64,000 nucleotides of DNA, from NCBI GenBank assembly GCA_001002325.1, contig LCNZ01000005.1, forward strand, positions 18,274 through 82,273, read 5' to 3'. Source of the stretch: Candidatus Amesbacteria bacterium GW2011_GWB1_47_19 (lineage in GTDB: Bacteria > Patescibacteriota > Microgenomatia > CAZETR01 > Amesbacteraceae). Below are positions 9,066-55,431 of this stretch, in pieces. The notes under the pieces are model-generated. The model was given only the letters and a program-made list of their open reading frames with translations, searched no databases and had not been told where the DNA came from. A program made the translations under genes and the position numbers. The number at the start of each line of letters is the position of its first letter. Position 1 is the first letter of the stretch.

Positions 9066-9072
9066 TCTAATG

Positions 9073-9143
9073 AGCGGCTAAGGGGAATCGAACCCCTGTC
9101 ATCTCCTTGGCAAGGAGAAGTTCTACCATTGAACCATAGCCGC
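9073..9143 (-). tRNA. tRNA-Gly (anticodon GCC)
   Basis: Acceptor gcggcta/tagccgc, anticodon loop ttGCCaa, T-loop ttcgatt. Confidence 0.85.
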
Positions 9144-9147
9144 AGTG

Positions 9148-9220
9148 TGCCGAGAGCTGGAGTCGAACCAGCATCTGACGCTCTTCAGGCGCCCGCCGTA
9201 ACCACCTTGGCTATCTCGGC
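9148..9220 (-). tRNA. tRNA-Phe (anticodon GAA)
   Basis: Acceptor gccgaga/tctcggc, anticodon loop ctGAAga, T-arm gctggttcgactccagc. Confidence 0.85.
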
Positions 9221-9295
9221 GAAGGAATGAAATGACTGAGCTGAGATACAGCGTAAGTCGTATCTCGGCAAGGAACGAGCTTCAGTTGGATTTTA

Positions 9296-9478
9296 CTACA
9301 TCCGGGGAGGGCTTAAACAGTATCCAGTGCGGTCTCTCCCTTTTTTTAAAAATCTAAAATCTGTATTAAATAGTTTATCAACTTGAGCCGCGGATGGTCT
9401 AATACCTGTATTTTTTTCCACCAAATCTTGAAAATTAGATATTATTTCTTCCCGAAGTTGTTCTTGGGAGGTAGCCAT
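9296..9478 (-). CDS. hypothetical small ORF (60 aa)
   Basis: ORF only. Sits between tRNA-Phe and tRNA-Val. No similarity recognised. Confidence 0.2.
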   Translation of the reverse strand: MATSQEQLREEIISNFQDLVEKNTGIRPSAAQVDKLFNTDFRFLKKGRDRTGYCLSPPRM

Positions 9479-9523
9479 TTATTGATTGTATACCTGGGGT
9501 CAATAGTTGCTGACGCTGTCTGG

Positions 9524-9597
9524 TGGACGATGAGGGACTCGAACCCCCGACCCCCGCTGTGTAAAAGCGATGCTCTAACCAGCTGAGCTAATCGTCC
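9524..9597 (-). tRNA. tRNA-Val (anticodon TAC), CCA encoded
   Basis: Acceptor ggacgat/atcgtcc, anticodon loop ttTACac, T-arm gggggttcgagtccctc, followed by cca. Confidence 0.85.
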
Positions 9598-9616
9598 TGA
9601 GATTATATTACAGCTG

Positions 9617-9700
9617 TGGGCAAGAGAGGACTTGAACCTCCACTCCCTTGCGGGAACAGGCTCCTGAAGCCTGCGCGTCTGCCAGTTCCGCCACTTGCCC
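9617..9700 (-). tRNA. tRNA-Leu (anticodon CAG), type II
   Basis: Acceptor gggcaag/cttgccc, anticodon stem caggc/gcctg with loop ttCAGga, long variable arm, T-loop ttcaagt. Confidence 0.85.
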
Positions 9701-9945
9701 TAGAACTGATTCATGAGCTCCGCAATTATCTCACGTCCGAAACCGGATTTGAAGAATTTCTCAAGATTCCTGGCCTGTATTCTGGTATCGCACTCTTCGA
9801 CGTGAATCAATCGCAACGGCAAATGACCTCTTGTGGAGGGCGATTTACCACTTTCGTGTTGATACAGGCGTCTTTGTAAGTTGTTGGTTATCCCTTTGTA
9901 AATGAATTTATCCCCGTAACTTTGAAGGATATAAACAAAATACAT
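9700..9945 (-). CDS. GIY-YIG nuclease family mini-protein
   Basis: MYFVYILQS...KFIYKGITNNLQRRLYQHE. The stop codon overlaps nt 1 of tRNA-Leu(CAG). Confidence 0.8.
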   Translation of the reverse strand: MYFVYILQSYGDKFIYKGITNNLQRRLYQHESGKSPSTRGHLPLRLIHVEECDTRIQARNLEKFFKSGFGREIIAELMNQF

Positions 9946-9948
9946 GTT

Positions 9949-10073
9949 TGAAGCCTGCGCGCCTGCCTGCCGGCAGGCAGGTCTGCCAGTTCCGCCACTT
10001 GCCCTAGAACTGATTCATGAGCTCCGCAATTATCTCACGTCCGAAACCGGATTTGAAGAATTTCTCAAGATTC
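9949..10073 (-). repeat. direct repeat of 9665-9769 (GIY-YIG 3' end plus tRNA-Leu nt 1-36) with inserted 20-bp palindrome
   Basis: 13 + 92 nt are identical to 9665-9677 and 9678-9769. Perfect palindrome CCTGCCTGCCGGCAGGCAGG at 9962-9981 sits between them. Confidence 0.8.
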
Positions 10074-10194
10074 TTATGAGAAAAATGAATCAATCAAACT
10101 GCTTATATTGATGTACCCAAACCAAAATGTCATATGTCTTACGCGAAAAAAATATAAAATTGTCAATTCATTGGGTATAATTAAGAAAGTAGGA

Positions 10195-10278
10195 GCCGGG
10201 ATGCTGAAACTGGTAGACAGGCATGCTTGAGGGGCATGTGTCAGCAATGGCGTGGAGGTTCGAGTCCTCTTCCCGGCA
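10195..10278 (+). tRNA. tRNA-Leu (anticodon GAG), type II
   Basis: Acceptor gccggga/tcccggc, anticodon stem catgc/gcatg with loop ttGAGgg, long variable arm. Confidence 0.8.
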
Positions 10279-10282
10279 CACT

Positions 10283-10366
10283 GCCGGGGTGGCGAAATGG
10301 TAGACGCAAGGGCCTTAAGAGCCCTCGGTCCAAAAGACCATGCGAGTTCGAGTCTCGCCCCCGGCA
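10283..10366 (+). tRNA. tRNA-Leu (anticodon TAA), type II
   Basis: Acceptor gccgggg/ccccggc, anticodon stem agggc/gccct with loop ctTAAga, T-arm gcgagttcgagtctcgc. Confidence 0.85.
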
Positions 10367-10368
10367 CA

Positions 10369-10764
10369 ATGAGTTTTGAGTGTGTTAATTGTCATTACCT
10401 GGTACGGGAAGGTAAAAGATATGCCGGGACGGAAAACAGAAACCATTGCACGAAATGTTTGTGGTCATTGCATGCGGATTTAAGACCTGGTGACAGAAAA
10501 GCATTGTGCGGAGGAAAAATGAATCCCGCGGGGCTTACTTTTAAGCGGGTGAAAAAAGATAAGTACGGGAAAGAAAAGGTTGGAGAATTGATGCTAGTAC
10601 ACCAATGCGTAAAATGCCTAGAAGTATCAATAAACAGGATTGCGGCGGATGACGACCCGGTGGAAATAATGAATCTCGTAAATTCCGGTTTTTCTGTTGA
10701 AGGAATCAGTGTGCTGGATGAGGCTGACAGGTCGGAAGTACGCAGGCAGCTATTCGGGGTGTAA
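10369..10764 (+). CDS. RNHCP-domain zinc-ribbon protein
   Basis: Literal RNHCTKC signature plus additional CxxC pairs. The ATG lies 2 nt after tRNA-Leu(TAA). The ORF-track upstream extension from 10252 covers two tRNAs and is rejected. Confidence 0.6.
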   Translation: MSFECVNCHYLVREGKRYAGTENRNHCTKCLWSLHADLRPGDRKALCGGKMNPAGLTFKRVKKDKYGKEKVGELMLVHQCVKCLEVSINRIAADDDPVEIMNLVNSGFSVEGISVLDEADRSEVRRQLFGV

Positions 10765-10775
10765 AATTATAAACA

Positions 10776-10848
10776 CGGAGAGTGGCGCAGCTGGTAGCGC
10801 GCATCGTTTGGGACGATGAGGCCCCGGGTTCGAGTCCCGGCTCTCCGA
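10776..10848 (+). tRNA. tRNA-Pro (anticodon TGG)
   Basis: Acceptor cggagag/ctctccg, anticodon stem catcg/cgatg with loop ttTGGga, T-arm ccgggttcgagtcccgg. Confidence 0.85.
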
Positions 10849-29183: not shown

Positions 29184-30290
29184 ATGCCAAATAGTGAATT
29201 TCAGCCAAGGTTGCGAGAACGCCTGATGCCGAAGAATAACGGCCCGAGGCTCCCGAAACGTCCGGGTAAAGATTTAAATATTCCTGACTACAGAGAAAGA
29301 GCAGGGGTTGAGACGATGGCCATTGGAGGCATTGTAACGGTTGAAGCCATGAGACGACTGATGGATCAGTATTTTGATGCTCAAGATGGAGTAGCAACCC
29401 AAGCACCCGTTACCACTGAGGCGCCGGTTGTAACCCAGGAACCAACCCAGGAAGCAACTGCGACTCAAGTAGCATCTTCACCCACACCGGAAGCTACTAA
29501 CACGCAGGTTCCTGAACCCACTGCTACCCAACAGGGTTGTGGTAAGCAATATGATATTGACGGAATGAAGAGATACAAATTTGGAGGATTGGAGCATACT
29601 GAACAGACAATCAAAGTCGAACAGGAAAGTGATGTAACCGCAAAAATAAGATATGTACAGGATGTAGATAAATCAGGACGCGAATTTTGTGCTGAAAATG
29701 AATTGCAGACACACGAAACTGCTGTAGTTTATATCGATGGTTGTGGAAAAATTGAAATAACAGACGGCGTTAAAGGTGCAAATGAAGGTACTGATAAATT
29801 CAGTTGCGTTCTTCCGAAAGGTGAATATAAACTCCATGTACAATCGACAGCAAGTGATTACAATGACGTCGGAAGTATTAACATTGGAATAGATATAAAT
29901 ATGGAAGCTGTTCCGACCAAAACGCCGGCATCCCCCACTCCTATTCCTACGACCATGACACCGACTCTTGTTGCCCCGACGATTACACCTACACCTTATC
30001 CCACGGGTTTAGTAACACCTGAGAACTCACCTACACCCCCGTATTATACTGGGACTCCTACTCCTACGGGCGAGTTTCCAACTGCTACTCCTACTCGTAC
30101 AAACGATAATCCCCCCGGCCGTAAGCCGACACCTACTGAAACTTATGTACCAGGTGTTCCTGCACAGCAAAGAGCGATGGTGCCAGTAACCGGAGCTGAA
30201 GTAAACGGTGAGGTGACTGGAGCGGCAATTATGGCTCTGGCCTTTATTTTAGGTAGCATAGCGTATTCAAGAAATCACAGGAGAAGATAA
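29184..30290 (+). CDS. Thr/Pro-rich surface protein with small 4-Cys domain and C-terminal TM plus basic tail
   Basis: TP-rich linkers and C-terminus ...MVPVTGAEVNGEVTGAAIMALAFILGSIAYSRNHRRR. Confidence 0.45.
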   Translation: MPNSEFQPRLRERLMPKNNGPRLPKRPGKDLNIPDYRERAGVETMAIGGIVTVEAMRRLMDQYFDAQDGVATQAPVTTEAPVVTQEPTQEATATQVASSPTPEATNTQVPEPTATQQGCGKQYDIDGMKRYKFGGLEHTEQTIKVEQESDVTAKIRYVQDVDKSGREFCAENELQTHETAVVYIDGCGKIEITDGVKGANEGTDKFSCVLPKGEYKLHVQSTASDYNDVGSINIGIDINMEAVPTKTPASPTPIPTTMTPTLVAPTITPTPYPTGLVTPENSPTPPYYTGTPTPTGEFPTATPTRTNDNPPGRKPTPTETYVPGVPAQQRAMVPVTGAEVNGEVTGAAIMALAFILGSIAYSRNHRRR

Positions 30291-31901: not shown

Positions 31902-31973
31902 GCCCCCGTAGCTCAACGGACAGAGTAAGTCCCTTCTAAGGACGAGATGGAGGTTCGATTCCTCCCGGGGGCA
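31902..31973 (+). tRNA. tRNA-Arg (anticodon TCT)
   Basis: Acceptor gcccccg/cgggggc, anticodon loop ctTCTaa, T-arm ggaggttcgattcctcc. Confidence 0.8.
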
Positions 31974-31978
31974 CTTGT

Positions 31979-32050
31979 GGGCCCGTAGCTCAGGGGTAGA
32001 GCAGTCGCCTCTTAAGCGAACGGTCGAAGGTTCGAATCCTTCCGGGCTCA
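31979..32050 (+). tRNA. tRNA-Lys (anticodon CTT)
   Basis: Acceptor gggcccg/cgggctc, anticodon loop ctCTTaa, T-arm gaaggttcgaatccttc. Confidence 0.8.
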
Positions 32051-32055
32051 CTTAA

Positions 32056-32126
32056 TGCGAGGTCGTCTAATGGTAGGACAGCAGACTTTGGATCTGCTTA
32101 TCTTGGTCCGAATCCAAGCCTCGCAG
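32056..32126 (+). tRNA. tRNA-Gln (anticodon TTG)
   Basis: U1:A72 acceptor tgcgagg/cctcgca, anticodon stem gcaga/tctgc with loop ctTTGga, T-arm cttggtccgaatccaag, discriminator G, followed by a T-run. Confidence 0.85.
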
Positions 32127-38308: not shown

Positions 38309-39676
38309 TTATTTACGGGAGATGTTAAAAGAGTTTGGATAGAAAAGAAACACGGCAGGGGCTTCTTCAAGGAGAAACTTCTGGAAATCGGAATAAATAC
38401 CGAATCGGACTGCGTAATCCGAAGTTTTCCGGCCATCTTCCAAAAGTTTGTCTATCCGGGGATTTTTGAGGCGGGAGAGATTTGTAGTGTCCTGGGTTGA
38501 ATGCCAGAGATTGTACTGGTCCGGGTCTGAGGGGATGGCTTGAGCAATCAGTATAATCTGGTACTCCGAGGGTAGTTCGGTGGACACAATTATTTTGGTA
38601 TCCACGCCTATGGCAGACCAGTCTTTTTTGATGTCTTCGGCAATTTCCGAATATGCAGGAACCGTAGATAAGATAACTGATTCCGGAATCTTTTCAACCT
38701 TTTTGAGCAATTCTTTAGCCTTGGCGGGATCCAAATCGTATTTTTTTACCTCCGAATTAAAAGCCCAGGATTCGGGTGAAATCGGTCCCAGAGCCCGGTC
38801 CGACCAACGGGATTTGTCTATAGCATATGTCAGAGCCAGACGCAGGTTTTTACCGGAGGGACCGGATAGCTGGGGGTCCTGAGTGTTGAAAAAGATACCG
38901 ATATATCGATCTTTCTGAGTATGAGAATTGATTTCCAGGTTTGACCAGGATGAAAGATCATTAGGTTCTGTAAGGCCGACAATTTCATGAAGAATACCCA
39001 GCTTCAGAGCGAGCCGAGCCTGATCTCCCGAGGAATAGAAATGATAGATCAGCCCAGGCAGAGCGGAGTTACTGGGGACAGGGACGAGAGTTAGAATTGA
39101 GAGCAGACTGCCGTTTTTGCGATAAGATTTTATGCGGTATGTACCCAGGCCGGAAATCTGCGGGCGGTTAAAACGTGTCAAGAGGCCAGATGTTTTTAGC
39201 ACCGGCCGGGATACCACAGAAGGCAAAGGCGAAAACGGATCGGTAAGTTTTATGAGCAGATGATCTGAATCGGGATACTCGATTGAGGCATCGCGAAAGT
39301 TGTAGCGGATGTCTTGGCTCTTGACAGAGGAACCGTCATGCCAGACCAGGGAGCGGTCAATGGTAAAAATATATGTTTTTCCGCTGTCCGTTGCCTGCCA
39401 GGAGGAAGCAATTCCGGGTGAAGCGACACCGGTAGGATCTAAATTGGTGAGTCCGATGCTGACTTTTTGCATCAAAGATAGCGGCAGGTCGTTGAGAGTG
39501 TACCGGCCTATTATTCCGATGCGGCGGACATTCCCGATACGGTTACCCAAAATAAACAACCTCGGAGCGACAATTGCTGAAATAACCGCCAGTGTTAAAC
39601 CCAAAAGTATCGGTAACCAATGCTTGGCAGTCAGGGCGCGAATAAAGCGGAGGTAAAATCTCAGCTTTTTATACAT
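38309..39676 (-). CDS. ABC transporter substrate-binding protein, family 5 (peptide/nickel type)
   Basis: ASSWQATDSGKTYIFTIDRSLVWHDGSSVKSQDIRYNF matches the SBP_bac_5 N-lobe signature. N-terminal anchor. Confidence 0.65.
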   Translation of the reverse strand: MYKKLRFYLRFIRALTAKHWLPILLGLTLAVISAIVAPRLFILGNRIGNVRRIGIIGRYTLNDLPLSLMQKVSIGLTNLDPTGVASPGIASSWQATDSGKTYIFTIDRSLVWHDGSSVKSQDIRYNFRDASIEYPDSDHLLIKLTDPFSPLPSVVSRPVLKTSGLLTRFNRPQISGLGTYRIKSYRKNGSLLSILTLVPVPSNSALPGLIYHFYSSGDQARLALKLGILHEIVGLTEPNDLSSWSNLEINSHTQKDRYIGIFFNTQDPQLSGPSGKNLRLALTYAIDKSRWSDRALGPISPESWAFNSEVKKYDLDPAKAKELLKKVEKIPESVILSTVPAYSEIAEDIKKDWSAIGVDTKIIVSTELPSEYQIILIAQAIPSDPDQYNLWHSTQDTTNLSRLKNPRIDKLLEDGRKTSDYAVRFGIYSDFQKFLLEEAPAVFLFYPNSFNISRK

Positions 39677-43396: not shown

Positions 43397-46237
43397 CTAT
43401 TTCAGGAACCGCCCCGTAGGGGAACCGGAGACGGATGCCAGTTTATGAGGCGGTCCGGCAGCAATCAAACGCCCGCCGTCATCGCCACCTTCGGGACCGA
43501 GCTCTATAATCCAGTCGGCATTTTTTATAACATCCAAATTATGCTCGATGACCACCACGGTGTTACCCGCGGCAACCAAACGGTGAAGGACCAAAAGAAG
43601 TTTTTCCAAATCGGCAAAATGCAGTCCGGTGGTGGGTTCGTCGAGTATATAAAAAGCCCTTTTGCCCGTAGAACGCTTGGATAATTCGGTGGCTAGCTTT
43701 ACCCGCTGGGCTTCACCTCCCGAAAGCGTTGGTGCAGGTTGTCCGAGGCGAATATAATCCAGGCCAACATCCTTTAAAGTCCGCAGTTTTTCCTGAGCCT
43801 GGGGAATGTTGGCAAAAAAATCCAGAGCCTCCTCGACTGTCATTTCTAACACGTCGGCGATGTTTTTATTTTTGAATGAGACTTCCAGAGTTTCGGAATT
43901 GTAGCGTGAACCCCCACAGAGTTCACATTTGACGTAAACATCGGGCAAAAACTGCATTTCTATTTTGATCTGTCCTTCCCCCTGGCAATTTTCGCAGCGG
44001 CCGCCCCTGACGTTAAATGAAAACCTACCGGGCAGATAACCGCGGATACGGGCTTGGGAGGTGAGGGCGAAAATATCGCGGACCGGCGTAAAAAGTCCGG
44101 TGTATGTAGCGGGATTTGAGCGGGGGGTGCGGCCGATGGGAGACTGATCGACCATGATGACCCGGCTAATACTGTCCATTCCTTCCAAACGATCAAACGT
44201 ACCTGGTTTTTCGCGGTGTTCCCGGCTCAAGTGAGATGCCAGGGCATGATATAAAATATCTATCAAAAGAGTAGATTTACCTGAACCGGAAACACCGGCA
44301 ACAACTATGAATTTTCCCAAAGGGAAACTGACGTCAATATGCTGCAAATTGTGTTCGGAAGCACCGTATACAGTCAGTTGATCAGTGGTCAGATGACTGG
44401 TGAGGGGGAGCGGCCGGAGAGTGATCTGTTTTTTACCGGACAGATATTGACCGGTAAGGGAAGCGGGATCGGAAGCGATATGGCGGGGAGTACCTCGGGA
44501 AACAATTTTGCCCCCGTGATCTCCGGCTCCTGGCCCGAAATCGATAATCCAGTCACTCTGATTCATCATATCCCGGTCGTGTTCGACTACAATTACAGAG
44601 TTTCCCAGGTCACGCAGGCGTTTGAGAGTGTCGATCAAGCGTTGATTGTCCCGCTGATGCAGACCAATCGACGGTTCATCCAGAACGTATAAAACCCCTG
44701 ACAGACCGCTGCCAATCTGCGAAGCCAGGCGAATACGCTGGGCTTCTCCGCCGGCCAGGGAGTTAGCCGGGCGGTCCAGTGTCAGATAATCCAAGCCCAC
44801 GGACACAAGAAAATTAAGCCGTTCGGATATTTCCTTGAGTATGGGACGGGAGACAGTCTGATCACGCGAATTCAATGAAGGAAGAGAGCCAAGAACCGAC
44901 AAAGTTCCGGTTATGGACATACGGGTAATTTCAACAATGGATTTTGCGTCAATAGTTACGGAAAGGGCTTCCGGTTTGAGACGAGCTCCACGGCAGGAAG
45001 GGCAAATTTCCTTGCGCATATATTTTTCTATCTCGTTTCTTATGAAGTCGGATTGGGTTTGACGGTGGCGGCGGGAGAGATTGGGAATAATGCCTTCAAA
45101 AGAAATGATTTCATCGGTACCGAATAAAAGGATTTTCTTCTGAGACGGGGTTAATTCCTTAATCGGGATACGCAGGGGGACGATGGCGCCGATTTTTTGG
45201 GAAAACCAGGAATCGTAACTGAAAATATTGGCATAAGGAAGTATTCCCCCCTCACTGATAGTCAGATTGGGATTGAGGATGAGATTTTCGTCAATTTTGA
45301 GAAGTGTTCCCAACCCTGTGCAGGTAGTACAAGCACCATGGGGAGAATTGAAGGAAAACATCCGGGGTTCGATGGGGGGAAGAGATATATTGTCGACGGG
45401 ACAGGAAAATTTTTCAGAAAATAAGTGGTCATCCAGATGTGAAGGACGATCTGGCAGATCGAAAGATTTGTCAAGAATTTCCGTGACTATGCACAGACCC
45501 TCAGACAGTTTTAGTGCCTGTTCGACCGAGTCAAACAGGCGGCTGCGCAACGAGGAAATATCGACCAACTGCGGTTTGGTGACCGAAAGACGATCTATCA
45601 CCACGTCGATGGCGTGCTTGTTGTTTTTCAGAAGAAAAACGTCTTCGTCCAGTCCTACAATCTTGCCGTCGATACGAATCTGAGAATAACCTTTTTGGCG
45701 AAGACTGCCAAAAAGGTCTTTAAATTCTCCTTTTCTATCTCTGATTACGGGAGACAGCAGCAGAAAACGGAATTGCCTGTGAGCAGAAAGTTTTTCGCGG
45801 GTAAGGACAAATATTTGTTCCACGATTTGCTGGGCGGACATTTGAGATATCTCTCGGCCGCATTTCGGACAGTGGGGGTGACCGATCCGGGCGAATAAAA
45901 GACGGAGATAGTCGTAAATTTCGGTGACCGTACCGACCGTGGAACGGGGATTATGGGAAGCACTTTTCTGATCTATGGAAATGGCCGGGGAAAGACCGGT
46001 AATATTGTCTACATCGGGTTTGTCCATGACTCCCAGGAATTGACGGGCATAAGAGGATAATGATTCCACGTAACGCCGCTGGCCTTCGGCATAGATGGTA
46101 TCAAATGCCATTGAGCTTTTGCCGGAACCTGATAGACCGGTAAAGACCACCAACTTATTTTTGGGAATGTCCAAATCGACATTTTTCAGGTTATGTTCAC
46201 GGGCACCCCTGACTTTGATGAAATCGTTCATTTTCAA
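43397..46237 (-). CDS. uvrA: Excinuclease ABC subunit A
   Basis: Two ABC ATPase modules with Walker A (GLSGSGKSS, GVSGSGKST) and zinc-finger CxxC pairs. The better start is probably the ATG at 46231 (MNDFIKVRGAREHNL). Confidence 0.95.
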   Translation of the reverse strand: MKMNDFIKVRGAREHNLKNVDLDIPKNKLVVFTGLSGSGKSSMAFDTIYAEGQRRYVESLSSYARQFLGVMDKPDVDNITGLSPAISIDQKSASHNPRSTVGTVTEIYDYLRLLFARIGHPHCPKCGREISQMSAQQIVEQIFVLTREKLSAHRQFRFLLLSPVIRDRKGEFKDLFGSLRQKGYSQIRIDGKIVGLDEDVFLLKNNKHAIDVVIDRLSVTKPQLVDISSLRSRLFDSVEQALKLSEGLCIVTEILDKSFDLPDRPSHLDDHLFSEKFSCPVDNISLPPIEPRMFSFNSPHGACTTCTGLGTLLKIDENLILNPNLTISEGGILPYANIFSYDSWFSQKIGAIVPLRIPIKELTPSQKKILLFGTDEIISFEGIIPNLSRRHRQTQSDFIRNEIEKYMRKEICPSCRGARLKPEALSVTIDAKSIVEITRMSITGTLSVLGSLPSLNSRDQTVSRPILKEISERLNFLVSVGLDYLTLDRPANSLAGGEAQRIRLASQIGSGLSGVLYVLDEPSIGLHQRDNQRLIDTLKRLRDLGNSVIVVEHDRDMMNQSDWIIDFGPGAGDHGGKIVSRGTPRHIASDPASLTGQYLSGKKQITLRPLPLTSHLTTDQLTVYGASEHNLQHIDVSFPLGKFIVVAGVSGSGKSTLLIDILYHALASHLSREHREKPGTFDRLEGMDSISRVIMVDQSPIGRTPRSNPATYTGLFTPVRDIFALTSQARIRGYLPGRFSFNVRGGRCENCQGEGQIKIEMQFLPDVYVKCELCGGSRYNSETLEVSFKNKNIADVLEMTVEEALDFFANIPQAQEKLRTLKDVGLDYIRLGQPAPTLSGGEAQRVKLATELSKRSTGKRAFYILDEPTTGLHFADLEKLLLVLHRLVAAGNTVVVIEHNLDVIKNADWIIELGPEGGDDGGRLIAAGPPHKLASVSGSPTGRFLK

Positions 46238-46243
46238 ACAATT

Positions 46244-46273
46244 ATTGTACTACGGGTTTCGGGTTTTGTTCAA
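46244..46273 (-). promoter_or_regulatory. candidate sigma70-type promoter of uvrA (TTGAAC-N18-TACAAT), near-leaderless
   Basis: Read on the minus strand, TTGAAC (46273-46268) and TACAAT (46249-46244). The -10 ends 12 nt before the ATG at 46231. Confidence 0.35.
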
Positions 46274-46532
46274 GTATCAGAAGAGGTTATTTGGAAAGAT
46301 GCTTACCATCCTGGGTCACATGTTTTTTTAAGCATTCCGGTTTCCTGGTTTGAGGAGCTTTTTGGGGATTTCCGGGATGATGAAGTTTTTCGGTCCGGGG
46401 CTTGGGTTTCCAACCTTTCATGAATTCCGCCGATACCATGGTATTTTTATAATTAAATGAAGCTGACTATTTGTCAATAAGAGATTTTAGAGAATCCTTT
46501 ATAATATGCTATAGGTTATGATATAATAACGA

Positions 46533-46781
46533 ATGGGAAAAAATGAAACAGAAAGCGATATTCATTGTGAGGTGATAGGCGATGTATGTAAGCATATAGG
46601 TGAAGGAAGGGGGAAATGTATGTTTTGTACGGATGCAACGAGACACTTTATTGATTTGGTAAAAAAACTGGGTATTAAAAAAGGTGAAATTAAAACCGAC
46701 GGGTCTGAGGACGGTAACAGATTTACGGTGTATACAGATAATGGCTGGAGACGGAGTATAAGGAGCGGTAGGATCAGCTAA
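46533..46781 (+). CDS. hypothetical small Cys-rich protein
   Basis: 82 aa with HCEVIGDVCKH and GKCMFC (possible zinc knuckle). Lies between uvrA and uvrB on the opposite strand. Confidence 0.3.
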   Translation: MGKNETESDIHCEVIGDVCKHIGEGRGKCMFCTDATRHFIDLVKKLGIKKGEIKTDGSEDGNRFTVYTDNGWRRSIRSGRIS

Positions 46782-46787
46782 GTTCAG

Positions 46788-48818
46788 TTACTTATCTTTT
46801 AAACCTCGAATCTCGGCTATACGGTCGCGGATTTTGGCGGCAAGTTCGAAATCCAGGTTTTTGGCGGCCCTGATCATGTCACGGTTCATTATTTTTACCA
46901 GTTTGGTGAGGTCCGAAGGGGTAAGCTGGAAAACACGAGACATGTCCACATCGGAAGCGTCAAGTGAACGGCCTTTGAGAATCTGTGCGGGATCGAGTTT
47001 GACCGGAGAGTCTTCGGTTGCTGCCTCGACAATCCTTTCCCGGATGGGCTTGGTAATACTGGCAGGAATAATATGGTGTTTGAGGTTATATTCCAGCTGG
47101 ATCTCTCTCCGGCGTTCGACCTCGGAGATAGCATGGCGCATGGAGTCAGTAATGTGATCAGCATACATAATCACCTGACCGTCTACATGACGGGCAGCTC
47201 TGCCCATGGTCTGAATCAGGGACGTTCGGGATCGCAAAAATCCTTCCTTGTCCGCATCCAAAATTGCCACCAGCGAAACTTCGGGTAAATCCAAACCTTC
47301 GCGCAATAAATTGATGCCTACTACCACATCGTAAGTTCCGGAGCGCAAATCGCTGAGCACATCCAGGCGGGTTAAGGTCTCGATATCCGCATGCAGATAA
47401 TGGACTTTTATGCCGTGTTCCTGAAGGTAGGCGGACAGATCTTCAGCCATCCTTTTGGTAAGGGTGGTAACCAGAACCCGCTGACCGCGGGAGGTGCGAT
47501 CTGAGATATGAGAAACGAGAGATGAAATTTGATTTTTGGTCGGTAGAACCAGGATCTGTGGGTCAACCAGGCCGGTGGGACGGATGAGCTGTTCGACTAT
47601 TTGACCCGATGACAGGGATATTTCCCAGTCGTTGGGAGTAGCAGAGGTGTACATTGTCAACCCCATACGCCTCTGGAATTCGTCAAACTTGAGCGGCCGG
47701 TTGTCCAGAGCAGAAGGCAAGCGGAAACCAAAATCTATAAGTGTCTGCTTGCGGGATCTGTCTCCGTTGTACATTCCGCGGACCTGAGGGACCGTAATGT
47801 GAGACTCGTCGATAATCAATAAGTAATCCTTGGGAAAATAATCAAGAAGACTGTATGGCGGGTCACCGGGATTACGACCGTCAAAATAACGGGAGTAATT
47901 TTCGATGCCGTTGACGTATCCCAATTCGCGGATCATTTCCAAATCGTAGGTGACACGCTGATGTAGCCGATGCGCCTCCAGAATTTTTCCTGATCCGCGC
48001 AGCAACTTTTCCTGTGAGGTCAAGTCGGAAGTGATCTGAGAAAATATTTCATTCTGATTATCGCGTGAAGCGATGTAATGCTTGGCGGGATAGATCACAT
48101 GATTGATGATTGGAGATTCAGGATTGATGATTTCTCCCGTAAAGGAATTAATTTTTTCAATTTTTGTGATTTTTATTCCGTCGTGACGGATGCGGACGGC
48201 CGTATCCTCATAAGCCGGATAGATATCGATTACTTCACCCCTGAGACGGTAAGTTCCCCGGCGGAAGTCAAAATCAGAGCGGGAATATTGAAGATGGTTG
48301 AGGCGCAGCGTGATCTGTTCCCGGGTAACTTTCAAACCGGGAACAAGTTCAAGTACAGATTTGCCATATTCAGCCGGTGAGCCGAGGTTGTAGATACATG
48401 AGACCGAAGCTACAACCAGAGTATCTTTGCGGGTAAGCAGGTTCGTGGTAGCTGCTAAACGAAGCTTGTCGATCTCGGCGTTGATGTCTGTTTCTTTTTC
48501 GATGTAAGTGTCGGTTGAGGGAATATATGCTTCGGGCTGGTAATAATCGTAATAGGACACAAAATATGAGACAGCGTTGTCAGGGAAATATTCTTTGAAT
48601 TCCTGATAAAGCTGGGCAGCTAGAGTCTTGTTATGGGAAATTATCAGAGTGGGTTTCTGATATGCAGCAATAACGTTGGCCATGGTAAAAGTTTTGCCGC
48701 TGCCGGTAACTCCCAGAAGCACCTGATGGGACTGGCCGGACTTCAGACCAGCGATCAATTTTTCAATCGCCTGTGGCTGATCACCGGTGGCATGATATGG
48801 AGAGACTAATTTAAACAT
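46788..48818 (-). CDS. uvrB: Excinuclease ABC subunit B
   Basis: Helicase motifs (GVTGSGKT, DESH) and the C-terminal UvrB/UvrC interaction domain. Confidence 0.95.
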   Translation of the reverse strand: MFKLVSPYHATGDQPQAIEKLIAGLKSGQSHQVLLGVTGSGKTFTMANVIAAYQKPTLIISHNKTLAAQLYQEFKEYFPDNAVSYFVSYYDYYQPEAYIPSTDTYIEKETDINAEIDKLRLAATTNLLTRKDTLVVASVSCIYNLGSPAEYGKSVLELVPGLKVTREQITLRLNHLQYSRSDFDFRRGTYRLRGEVIDIYPAYEDTAVRIRHDGIKITKIEKINSFTGEIINPESPIINHVIYPAKHYIASRDNQNEIFSQITSDLTSQEKLLRGSGKILEAHRLHQRVTYDLEMIRELGYVNGIENYSRYFDGRNPGDPPYSLLDYFPKDYLLIIDESHITVPQVRGMYNGDRSRKQTLIDFGFRLPSALDNRPLKFDEFQRRMGLTMYTSATPNDWEISLSSGQIVEQLIRPTGLVDPQILVLPTKNQISSLVSHISDRTSRGQRVLVTTLTKRMAEDLSAYLQEHGIKVHYLHADIETLTRLDVLSDLRSGTYDVVVGINLLREGLDLPEVSLVAILDADKEGFLRSRTSLIQTMGRAARHVDGQVIMYADHITDSMRHAISEVERRREIQLEYNLKHHIIPASITKPIRERIVEAATEDSPVKLDPAQILKGRSLDASDVDMSRVFQLTPSDLTKLVKIMNRDMIRAAKNLDFELAAKIRDRIAEIRGLKDK

Positions 48819-48830
48819 TTATTATGAGTA

Positions 48831-48860
48831 TTGACATTTGGGTAATGTTCGGTTTATATT
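48831..48860 (+). promoter_or_regulatory. candidate lexA promoter TTGACA-N17-TTATAT with embedded imperfect palindrome (possible SOS operator)
   Basis: TTGACA at 48831-48836 and TTATAT at 48854-48859, 7 nt before the lexA ATG. The spacer contains GACATttgggtaATGTTC. Confidence 0.4.
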
Positions 48861-48866
48861 ATAGAT

Positions 48867-49511
48867 ATGCCGGTGACACTTTACAACAGACAGAGACAAA
48901 TTTTAGATTTTATCGCCCAATTTATCCAGAGGAACGGTTACTCCCCTACTCTTCAGGAAATTGCTGGAGCTTTGGGAGTATCTTCCCTGGCAACGGTTCA
49001 TGAACACTTGGAAGCAATGTCTAAAAAAGGCATCATCAAAAGGTTTGAGGGCACGGTCCGGGGGATAGAAATCCTGGATAAGGAGGTGGCGGCCCGCCAG
49101 GCGGCGGGCCCAGCGGCCGTGGAACTGCCTATCTTAGGATTTATTGCCGCCGGGCAGCCGATTGAGCCGTTTACCGATCCCAACGCCACGTTCGGAGTAC
49201 CGCCACTGATGGTGTCACCGAAAAAGAGATGTTTCGTCCTGCAGGTAAAAGGTGAATCCATGATTGAAGCGGGGATTTTTGACAGGGACTACGTGGTGAT
49301 TGAACAAACAGAAACTGCAAAAGACGGGGAAGTGGTGGTAGCTTTGTTGGATAACGGGTTTGCTACCCTGAAGAGATTCTTTAAGGAGGCTACCAGAATC
49401 CGCCTGGAACCGGCCAATTCCAGCATGTCCCCTATTTTCGTGGCAGGTGATAAGGTCAGGATACAGGGGAAAGTAGTGGGAGTTATCAGAAGGTATAATC
49501 AGGTAAATTAG
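48867..49511 (+). CDS. lexA: LexA repressor
   Basis: N-terminal wHTH (LTxRQxxIL, TLQEIA) and C-terminal S24 peptidase with the Ser...Lys dyad region (VKGESMIEAGI...VVALLDNGFATLKRF). Confidence 0.85.
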   Translation: MPVTLYNRQRQILDFIAQFIQRNGYSPTLQEIAGALGVSSLATVHEHLEAMSKKGIIKRFEGTVRGIEILDKEVAARQAAGPAAVELPILGFIAAGQPIEPFTDPNATFGVPPLMVSPKKRCFVLQVKGESMIEAGIFDRDYVVIEQTETAKDGEVVVALLDNGFATLKRFFKEATRIRLEPANSSMSPIFVAGDKVRIQGKVVGVIRRYNQVN

Positions 49512-54171: not shown

Positions 54172-55431
54172 TCAACGAGTGGAAGAAATTTCGGTATCGA
54201 TGGAAAGGAAATGGTTGTACTTGGCTACTCTTTCTCCGCGAGCAGGCGCACCGAATTTGGCATAATCCGCTCCTACCCCGACGGCAAAGTCGGCAATAAA
54301 GGTGTCGTTGGTCTCTCCTGAACGGTGGGTAATGTTAATTTTCCATCCGGCGTCCCTGGCTTTTTTAACCGCTGCGATGGCCTCGGAAACGGTGCCGATT
54401 TGATTTGGTTTGATGATAGCCCCATTGCAGGCTTTTTCGGCGATAGCTTTGGAAATTTTGGTCAGGTTGGTAGCCAGCAAATCGTCGCCGACGATAGTGG
54501 TATTCTGGCCAAGCTCCGAAGTAATCTGAGTCCAACCTTTCCAGTCATTTTCGTGCAGAGGGTCTTCTAAAAGACGTAAATGGTATTGCTTGTTGAGATC
54601 CCGAAGATACTCTATGAATTCGGAAGTATCCATGGGAGAGCTGCGATCCTTGATGGTATATCGGCCATCCTTGTAAAAACTATCGGAAGCTACGTCCAAG
54701 CCAAGTTCCACGTCGATCTGGGGTTGTTTCTTGCACTCAATAATCGCCTCGCTTAATATTTCCAGTGCATCCAGATTGGTAAAAAGATTTGGAGCAAAAC
54801 CGCCTTCGTCACCGACGCTGTGAATCGCACCCCGACGGACAAGCAGATTTTTTATCGAATGGTAAATTTCAGCGCCGGTTTGGAGCATTACTGAGAATGT
54901 GGATTTACGGCTGGGGATGATATGGAACTCCTGAAAATCCAGATTACCGGCGCCATGCTTGCCGCCGTTGATCATATTGAAAACAGGAGTGGGGATAAAC
55001 AGCTGGGAGCTGTTTTCAGCCAGTGTGGCAATATAGCGATAAAGCGGAAGAGAAGCCGCCTGGGCCAGAACTTTTGTGACAGACATAGAGACTCCCAACA
55101 GGGAGTTAGCCCCGAAACGGCTCTTGCTGGGGGTACCGTCCAATTGATTTAATATGTTATCCACCTCTTTGACTGTGGAAAAATCCATGCCCACAAGCTT
55201 GGCAGCAATCTCCCGGTTTACGTGGCCCACTGCCTGCAGAACACCTTTTCCGAAATAACGATTGGGGTCGTTGTCGCGCAGTTCAGACGAGTCCGGTATA
55301 CCGATTGAGGATCCCGAAGGGACTGAAGAAACACCGTATTGGCCGGTGTCAAGTATGGCTATGACTTCAACCGTAGGAGTAGCCCGTGAATCCAGGATTT
55401 CTCTGGCGTAAAGCTGTTTAAGTTTGGCCAT
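54172..55431 (-). CDS. eno: Enolase
   Basis: ILDSRATPTVEV, IKPNQIGTVSEAI, SHRSGETNDTFIADFAV, full-length 419 aa. Confidence 0.92.
   Translation of the reverse strand: MAKLKQLYAREILDSRATPTVEVIAILDTGQYGVSSVPSGSSIGIPDSSELRDNDPNRYFGKGVLQAVGHVNREIAAKLVGMDFSTVKEVDNILNQLDGTPSKSRFGANSLLGVSMSVTKVLAQAASLPLYRYIATLAENSSQLFIPTPVFNMINGGKHGAGNLDFQEFHIIPSRKSTFSVMLQTGAEIYHSIKNLLVRRGAIHSVGDEGGFAPNLFTNLDALEILSEAIIECKKQPQIDVELGLDVASDSFYKDGRYTIKDRSSPMDTSEFIEYLRDLNKQYHLRLLEDPLHENDWKGWTQITSELGQNTTIVGDDLLATNLTKISKAIAEKACNGAIIKPNQIGTVSEAIAAVKKARDAGWKINITHRSGETNDTFIADFAVGVGADYAKFGAPARGERVAKYNHFLSIDTEISSTR

Follow-up and report, generated by a model that had tools for sequence, protein, structure and literature searches.

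LexA is the textbook example of a regulator with a binding motif that drifts from phylum to phylum. SOS boxes shared by divergent gene pairs include those of E. coli uvrA-ssb and B. subtilis lexA-yneA, and Sanchez-Osuna, Barbe and Erill reportedly described, in 2017 (Environ Microbiol 19:3465), the SOS network of Patescibacteria with its LexA motif and a reduced SOS regulon. The LexA boxes of Alphaproteobacteria, and that of Acidobacterium, are direct repeats of the form GTTC-N7-GTTC (PMC8565304). Bacterial bidirectional promoters possess overlapping -10 elements with reciprocal -11A and -7T positions, and their start sites are usually 18 bp apart (PMC10268837). Leaderless genes carry a TANNNT hexamer about 12 nt upstream of the start codon (PMC3160421, PMC12340547).

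The window studied here, a stretch of 64,000 nucleotides from Candidatus Amesbacteria (Patescibacteria/Microgenomates), contains lexA and uvrB, which are divergent and separated by a gap of 48 bp, as well as uvrA:

48867-49511, plus strand: lexA, 214 aa, with Pfam domains LexA_DNA_bind and Peptidase_S24
46788-48818, minus strand: uvrB, with Pfam UvrB domains
43397-46231 (or 46237), minus strand: uvrA, with Pfam UvrA domains

The N-terminus of UvrA aligns with orthologues as M-x-D-F-I, which favours the ATG at 46231. The length of the uvrA-uvrB spacer varies, being 40 bp in locus L086, 200-290 bp in L083 and L085 and 550 bp in the window (46238-46787), where the spacer contains an 82-aa Cys-rich ORF (46533-46781, plus strand) with no Pfam match. 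This ORF is preceded by TTTATA-N18-TATAAT, the hexamer ending 5 nt before the ATG in a leaderless-like arrangement. The Rfam search of the window found 15 tRNAs only, with no rRNA and no other family; 11 of these 15 tRNAs lie in the clusters 9073-10848 and 31902-32126. Signature searches of the window and close loci for recA, ruvB, recN, dinB and uvrC gave nothing usable, and recA was not found in the 10 kb past either window end.

As was found by the Pfam search, the lexA product comprises an N-terminal winged-HTH domain (PF01726, 3.6e-19) and a C-terminal S24 peptidase domain (PF00717, 1.8e-29), and it matches PDB LexA structures along its full length. Its sequence is 100% identical to LexA of Candidatus Amesbacteria bacterium GW2011_GWB1_47_19. 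The recognition helix is SSLATVHEHL (residues 39-48). The Ala-Gly cleavage site in IAAGQP (93-98), the catalytic Ser in KGESM (128-132) and the catalytic Lys in TLKRF (167-171) align with E. coli VAAGEP, GMSM and TVKRL, respectively. Judging from this alignment, the cleavage site and the Ser/Lys dyad of the window LexA are intact.

Thirteen further lexA loci of the Amesbacteria clade were gathered (72-88% protein identity), giving 14 promoters together with that of the window, and 12 orthologous lexA promoters (LexA identity 72-88%) compose the alignment A1. The single-LexA contig scans included mostly Firmicutes and alphaproteobacterial loci and 11 close relatives, the remainder being used as controls. 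The lexA promoter was placed as follows:

48831-48836, plus strand: lexA -35 TTGACA, from the promoter scan; invariant in 12/12 orthologous loci
48855-48860, plus strand: lexA -10 TATATT, from the promoter scan and the orthologue alignment

The sequence TTGACA-N18-TATATT has 11 of 12 consensus matches and stands at the top of the 12 sites found by the scan in 4 kb. The sequence-only reading of this DNA had proposed a sigma70-type promoter, TTGACA-N17-TTATAT, ending 7 nt before the lexA ATG. The promoter type and the TTGACA hexamer were borne out, being kept across the 12 orthologous loci, but the N17-TTATAT register was not: it lies one base to the left of N18-TATATT, which is favoured by the scan and by the orthologues, which carry TAnATT in the N18 register. 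The distance between the -10 and the ATG is 6 nt rather than 7, and is gap-free in 12/12 aligned loci. Given this distance and the usual spacing of 7 nt from the -10 to the start site, the predicted start falls on A48867, the A of the AUG, and with such a start the lexA mRNA should be fully leaderless. There is no other in-frame lexA start upstream because of the TAA at 48843-45. The earlier suggestion of a near-leaderless lexA mRNA with no visible Shine-Dalgarno (SD) sequence agrees with this geometry, which is kept in 12/12 loci, and GGAG, GAGG and AGGA were not found upstream of lexA.

A TAnnnT hexamer ending exactly 6 nt before the start precedes 10 of 60 window genes, whereas the other offsets average ~1.9 genes (Poisson P 3e-5, ~1e-3 corrected). 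The 60 genes are crude gene calls; examples with this geometry are the genes at 29184 and, on the minus strand, 37611, 41543, 15477 and 34798. SD-like sequences (GGAG/GAGG/AGGA) were found in only five of the 60. The leaderless geometry is therefore real, but it is a habit of the whole stretch and not peculiar to lexA, which suggests that leaderless translation is widespread in this Amesbacteria genome. Like the leaderless genes of Actinobacteria and Deinococcus-Thermus, lexA has the first T of the hexamer at -12, 6 nt to the AUG and no SD (PMC3160421; PMC12340547). The window lineage differs in belonging to Patescibacteria, for which no report of this geometry was found in the literature searched. 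The lexA genes of the sister clade possess a leader of ~70 nt with a strong SD, AAGGAG, and thus the leaderless state is specific to Amesbacteria-type loci.

The imperfect palindrome GACAT-N7-ATGTTC had been proposed as a lineage-specific LexA operator within the lexA promoter. An inverted repeat is indeed present in the window sequence, and LexA operators are usually palindromic (PMC8565304). However, the perfect form of this repeat is only ACATT-N5-AATGT, with 5-nt arms, and the GACAT/ATGTTC pairing needs a bulge. Of the shuffles of the 48-bp spacer, 25% held a perfect 5-nt inverted repeat with a gap of 3-10 nt, and 58% did so with one bulge, so that the repeat is at chance level. The left arm is the -35 plus one T, and the right arm is variable in the 12 orthologous promoters, its bases reading TAATG, ATTTC, ATAAC, TAAGT and others, with any base (G/C/T/A) in the place of the G of 'GTTC'. 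In addition, the uvrA promoter and the separate uvrB promoters lack such a palindrome. It is very improbable that GACAT-N7-ATGTTC, or ACATT-N5-AATGT, is the operator of a symmetrically bound LexA dimer. Another inverted repeat, AACATT/AATGTT (48814-19 / 48844-49), was rejected, since one of its arms coincides with the start codon region of uvrB and its other arm is not conserved.

The comparison of lexA upstream regions across genomes, which the same reading had named as the test of its palindrome, brought out a different conserved motif:

48837-48852, no strand assigned: TTTGGGTAATGTTCGG, a 16-bp element and candidate LexA operator, from the cross-genome alignment, regular expression and PSSM

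What survives of the proposed lineage-specific operator is its position between the -35 and the -10; in place of the palindrome stands this non-palindromic 16-mer, which meets the proposed right arm only through TTC. The consensus of the element is T[TA][TC]GG[GT]-N5-TTC[GA][GA] (TWYGGK-N5-TTCRR). Its half-sites, TTTGG (48837-41) and TTCGG (48848-52), are TWYGG-like pentamers that form a direct repeat with an 11-bp period and no dyad symmetry. The element fills the lexA -35/-10 spacer and also covers the predicted uvrB start site. In the 12-sequence alignment, little or no variation is seen in TTGACAT, G19/G20, TTCGG and the ATG, the variable parts are the sequence 5' of the -35 and the five central bases of the element, and the sole indel is located between the element and the -10.

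By regular expression and PSSM, the element fills the stretch between -35 and -10 in 13 of the 14 Amesbacteria lexA promoters; the lexA copy of L161 is degenerate (TTTGTATTTTATTTGG). In loci L002 and L089, the pentamers occur at other spacings, of 9, 12 and 22 bp, which means that the 11-bp rule is not strict. The pattern TWYGGK-N5-TTCRR has 25 matches in ~94 kb of Amesbacteria loci, all at lexA, uvrB or uvrA promoters, versus 11 matches in ~1.03 Mb of other LexA loci, none of them at a lexA promoter. The all-site PSSM gave 21.9 bits to the lexA site and 21.7 bits to the uvrA site in the 64-kb window, and the next best score, 15.0, was in a coding region. A 22-mer pattern that includes the -35 has no second copy within the window. 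Three PSSM or pattern matches were dismissed as due to chance: those at 38404 on the minus strand (inside a coding region), at position 58 of L002 (inside miaA) and at 55338 on the minus strand (weak).

Several observations were made in individual loci. L178 comes from the same or a near-identical strain and contains the match TTTGAGTATTGTTCGG at 9069-9084, ~430 bp past the 3' end of the window, which with 17.5 bits scores above any non-promoter site of the window. A hypothetical lipoprotein-like gene (133 aa) begins 64 nt downstream of this match, which overlaps no obvious -35/-10 and may be an extra regulon member or a chance occurrence. The contig of L001 (CAZWKN010000001.1) is labelled 'uncultured Gammaproteobacteria bacterium'; its LexA is 80% identical to that of the window, uvrB is divergent directly upstream and the Amesbacteria lexA operator is present, and the label looks wrong. 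L001 (3877-3965), L163 (3916-3965) and L084 (1-27) have a common insertion that separates uvrB from the lexA promoter (…ttcaggatgacaaattgcgtg…), which in L001 bears the motif cattgcgagcgcagcgaagcaatc and resembles a small repeat element.

On the opposite strand, a uvrB promoter is predicted to overlap that of lexA:

48858-48863, minus strand: predicted uvrB -10 TATAAT, from the promoter scan, overlapping the lexA -10
48881-48886, minus strand: predicted uvrB -35 TTGTAA, from the promoter scan, putatively assigned, inside lexA codons 5-7
48861..48856, minus strand: alternative uvrB -10 TAATAT, which gives a symmetric bidirectional geometry

The predicted uvrB promoter is a consensus match: TTGTAA-N17-TATAAT (48886..48858, minus strand) agrees with the consensus at 10 of 12 positions in the promoter scan. 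The predicted uvrB leader is ~33 nt long, has no SD and begins inside the element, the expected start site being at 48849-48851. ATTATA stands next to the element both in loci that have uvrB adjacent to lexA and in the separate uvrB copies of loci L081 and L082. Like E. coli uvrA-ssb and B. subtilis lexA-yneA, the locus offers one candidate operator for two divergent promoters. It also resembles the described bidirectional promoters (PMC10268837), for A48856 and T48860 are usable reciprocally as -11A/-7T on both strands, within TATATT on the top strand and TAATAT (48861..48856) on the bottom strand. Unlike the shared-box and bidirectional systems, the gap is only 48 bp long, one partner is predicted to be leaderless and each -35 lies in the transcribed region of the other gene; in the TATAAT register, the predicted start separation is 16 bp instead of the usual 18 bp. 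All loci whose uvrB promoter could still use TTGTAn inside lexA have TAC as the codon for LexA Tyr6 (48882-48884); the codon is TAT in L081 and L082, where uvrB has its own promoter, and in L002 and L089 of the sister clade. In this small sample, such codon usage may point to selection on a -35 that lies within the lexA coding sequence.

In L081 and L082, uvrB is split from lexA, and each gene retains its own copy of the element:

L081, 2620-2635: uvrB copy, 4 nt upstream of the uvrB ATG, followed by ATTATA (minus-strand TATAAT)
L082, 2079-2094: uvrB copy, upstream of a 23S-rRNA-IVP gene and uvrB, followed by ATTATA
L081 and L082, 2971-2986 in each: lexA copies

The intervening gene of L082, between the operator and uvrB, encodes a 23S-rRNA intervening-sequence protein. 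The uvrB copies have lost TTGACA and kept ATTATA, whereas the lexA copies have kept TTGACA and lost ATTATA, and the 16-bp element is the sole part retained by both. The PSSM built from lexA sites only gave 18.9 and 16.8 bits to the uvrB copies of L081 and L082, versus a background maximum of 12.5 in 59 kb.

A further copy of the element was detected at uvrA:

46258-46273, no strand assigned: second copy, TTCGGGTTTTGTTCAA, inverted relative to uvrA and overlapping the uvrA -35
46273..46268, minus strand: uvrA -35 TTGAAC, from the promoter scan, N18 to the -10
46244-46249, minus strand: uvrA -10 TACAAT, from the promoter scan, kept in relatives

The last 6 nt of TTCGGGTTTTGTTCAA are the complement of the -35 TTGAAC, and the copy spans this -35 and the upstream part of the spacer. 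The uvrA promoter of relatives reads TTGAAYAAAACCCGAA...TAcAAT, which on the other strand is TTCGGGTTTT[G/A]TTCAA (window 46258-73) and there agrees with the lexA element at the conserved positions; the copy was found at the same place in nine loci. The uvrA gene is near-leaderless: the TACAAT hexamer is followed by a TTG 6 nt downstream and by the orthologue-supported ATG (46231) 12 nt downstream. The distance from the -10 to the uvrA start codon in relatives is 8-12 nt. In the window, uvrA transcription is expected to start at about 46237.

Within the window, the lexA and uvrA copies are identical at 11/16 positions, which is not significant, as 789 of 1000 shuffles reach 11/16, and the lexA-only PSSM ranks the uvrA site 13th of 127,970 positions. 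With a PSSM built without uvrA sites, the uvrA site came out on top in 8/8 uvrA upstream regions (P ~0.014-0.02 each); the nine uvrA sites are orthologous, hence not independent. The uvrA link therefore rests on cross-species conservation and P ~0.02, and the statistical support suggested for it by these comparisons is modest.

The sister clade (Pacebacteria/Cerribacteria-like), whose LexA has an identical recognition helix, carries TTCGT-N6-TTCGG in the lexA spacer. In the Pacebacteria-like locus L166, a strict TTCGG-N6-TTTGG is located between a -10-like box and the uvrA ATG, in the opposite orientation and at a different position versus the Amesbacteria uvrA site. Chance would produce this strict form 0.9 times per 34 kb with both strands counted, or an estimated ~0.003 times per 130-bp promoter region, and the L166 uvrA-leader site gives some independent support for the uvrA link. 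The lexA leaders of L166 (3880-4000), L168 (3898-4000) and L171 (3862-4000) contain a conserved inverted repeat, GTTCG(C)-N11/13-(G)CGAAC, which encloses TTCGG pentamers and may represent either an RNA hairpin or a second type of operator.

The element thus stands in three registers: in the lexA -35/-10 spacer, directly downstream of the uvrB TATAAT and inverted over the uvrA -35. Its recurrence at repair promoters in three registers argues for an operator and not for a core promoter part. The element is nevertheless situated inside core promoter regions, and it also makes up the beginning of the predicted uvrB leader in the window; the conserved spacer might then be a promoter feature of the lineage, acting through spacer or discriminator-like contacts or DNA bending, or reflect a constraint on the uvrB leader. 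This explanation is quite improbable, given the three positions and both orientations relative to the -35/-10, the retention of the element by the L081 and L082 lexA promoters, which no longer face uvrB, and the uvrA copy, which is upstream of the -10 and so untranscribed. Other window promoters of the same leaderless geometry are devoid of the element.

Read as an operator, the element shares its arrangement with the LexA box of Alphaproteobacteria: each is a non-palindromic direct repeat that has an 11-bp period, a TTC core in either half-site and a place in the promoters of SOS genes (PMC8565304). Unlike in the alphaproteobacterial GTTC, the base before TTC is unconserved here, and the conserved bases come after it (TTCGG / TTTGG / TACGG). 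The pattern GTTC-N7-GTTC was found in 0/14 Amesbacteria lexA promoters with one mismatch allowed, as against 10/10 alphaproteobacterial control loci, and the recognition helices differ, being SSLATVHEHL in the window and KSKSG[IV]HRLI in Alphaproteobacteria. The closest proteins outside Patescibacteria are LexA/DinR of Firmicutes and Actinobacteria (41-46% identity to the window LexA), and the recognition helix of the window LexA comes nearest to the Firmicutes type, SSSSTVHGHL. The element and the Gram-positive Cheo box CGAAC-N4-GTTCG have the half-site core TTCG in common. Unlike the Cheo box, the element has a direct, not an inverted, arrangement, and the G of GTTC is unconserved. The earlier statements that the site is neither the E. 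coli box CTGT-N8-ACAG nor a Cheo box were correct: CTGT and ACAG are absent from 48819-48866, and GAAC-N4-GTTC, one mismatch allowed, was found in 0/14 Amesbacteria lexA promoters, with exact matches in 21/68 mixed non-alpha controls. The element may be regarded as a half-site of Gram-positive-like type that has been rearranged into a direct repeat, which makes it an analogue of the alphaproteobacterial box while being distinct from it.

The 16-mer at lexA, uvrB and uvrA is probably the lineage's own LexA binding site. Its asymmetry speaks against this, as LexA dimers usually bind palindromes, and the element is tied to LexA indirectly. It could instead be the operator of a non-LexA regulator, e.g., a nucleotide-excision-repair repressor as yet unknown, with LexA acting elsewhere or nowhere in this region; among the genes examined, only lexA, uvrA and uvrB carry the element, with one further candidate upstream of the hypothetical lipoprotein gene. 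Such a regulator is unlikely, as no features of SOS regulons are more widespread than the autoregulation of lexA and the control of uvrA and uvrB by LexA (PMC8565304), and the 48-bp gap has no other conserved block to serve as a LexA site. Asymmetry itself has a precedent in the direct-repeat LexA boxes of Alphaproteobacteria (PMC8565304), and the TTCG core resembles the Gram-positive half-site GTTCG, just as the recognition helix is Gram-positive-like.

What was observed in silico is that the element is conserved, where it lies and that it recurs; from this we infer LexA binding, repression and the transcription start sites. In the preferred reading, with LexA as the regulator, PlexA (TTGACA-N18-TATATT) would start on the A of the lexA AUG, and the leaderless mRNA would be translated. 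The divergent PuvrB would have its -10 overlapping the lexA -10 on the other strand and its -35 within the first lexA codons. A LexA dimer of this lineage would bind TTTGGGTAATGTTCGG through two TWYGG-type half-sites one helical turn (11 bp) apart, and would then sit on the PlexA spacer and the PuvrB start region, repressing lexA and uvrB. A single LexA dimer could shut both promoters, as the candidate operator spans the PlexA spacer and approximately +1 to +15 of the uvrB transcript. The inverted second copy over the PuvrA -35 would bring about repression of uvrA, and RecA-stimulated self-cleavage of LexA would release lexA, uvrB and uvrA. It seems rather likely that the uvrB-lexA region is a compact bidirectional one with a single LexA operator, and that a second copy serves uvrA, LexA binding being deduced from sequence data.

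A broader proposal is put forward tentatively, as a possibility that we would sooner doubt than accept: in LexA of the Amesbacteria/Pacebacteria Microgenomates, a Gram-positive-like helix would read TTCGG-type tandem half-sites (TWYGG-N6-TTCGG), an undescribed shift from palindrome to tandem repeat independent of that in Alphaproteobacteria, and a minimal SOS unit would use one operator for leaderless lexA and uvrB, expressed from a 48-bp bidirectional promoter. The novelty of the element is uncertain and conditional on how it compares with the Patescibacteria motif that Sanchez-Osuna et al. are said to have described in 2017.

Current models stand, and the element appears to be a lineage-specific variant of well-known mechanisms. 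The commonness of SD-less, promoter-adjacent starts in this stretch matters for the calling of gene starts and for translation initiation with reduced ribosomes. If the proposed reading is true, this would be an independent case of the change from a palindrome to a direct repeat in LexA operators, in an uncultured lineage with reduced genomes and with a Gram-positive-like half-site, and the SOS regulon of Amesbacteria and related Microgenomates would be predictable from genomes alone.
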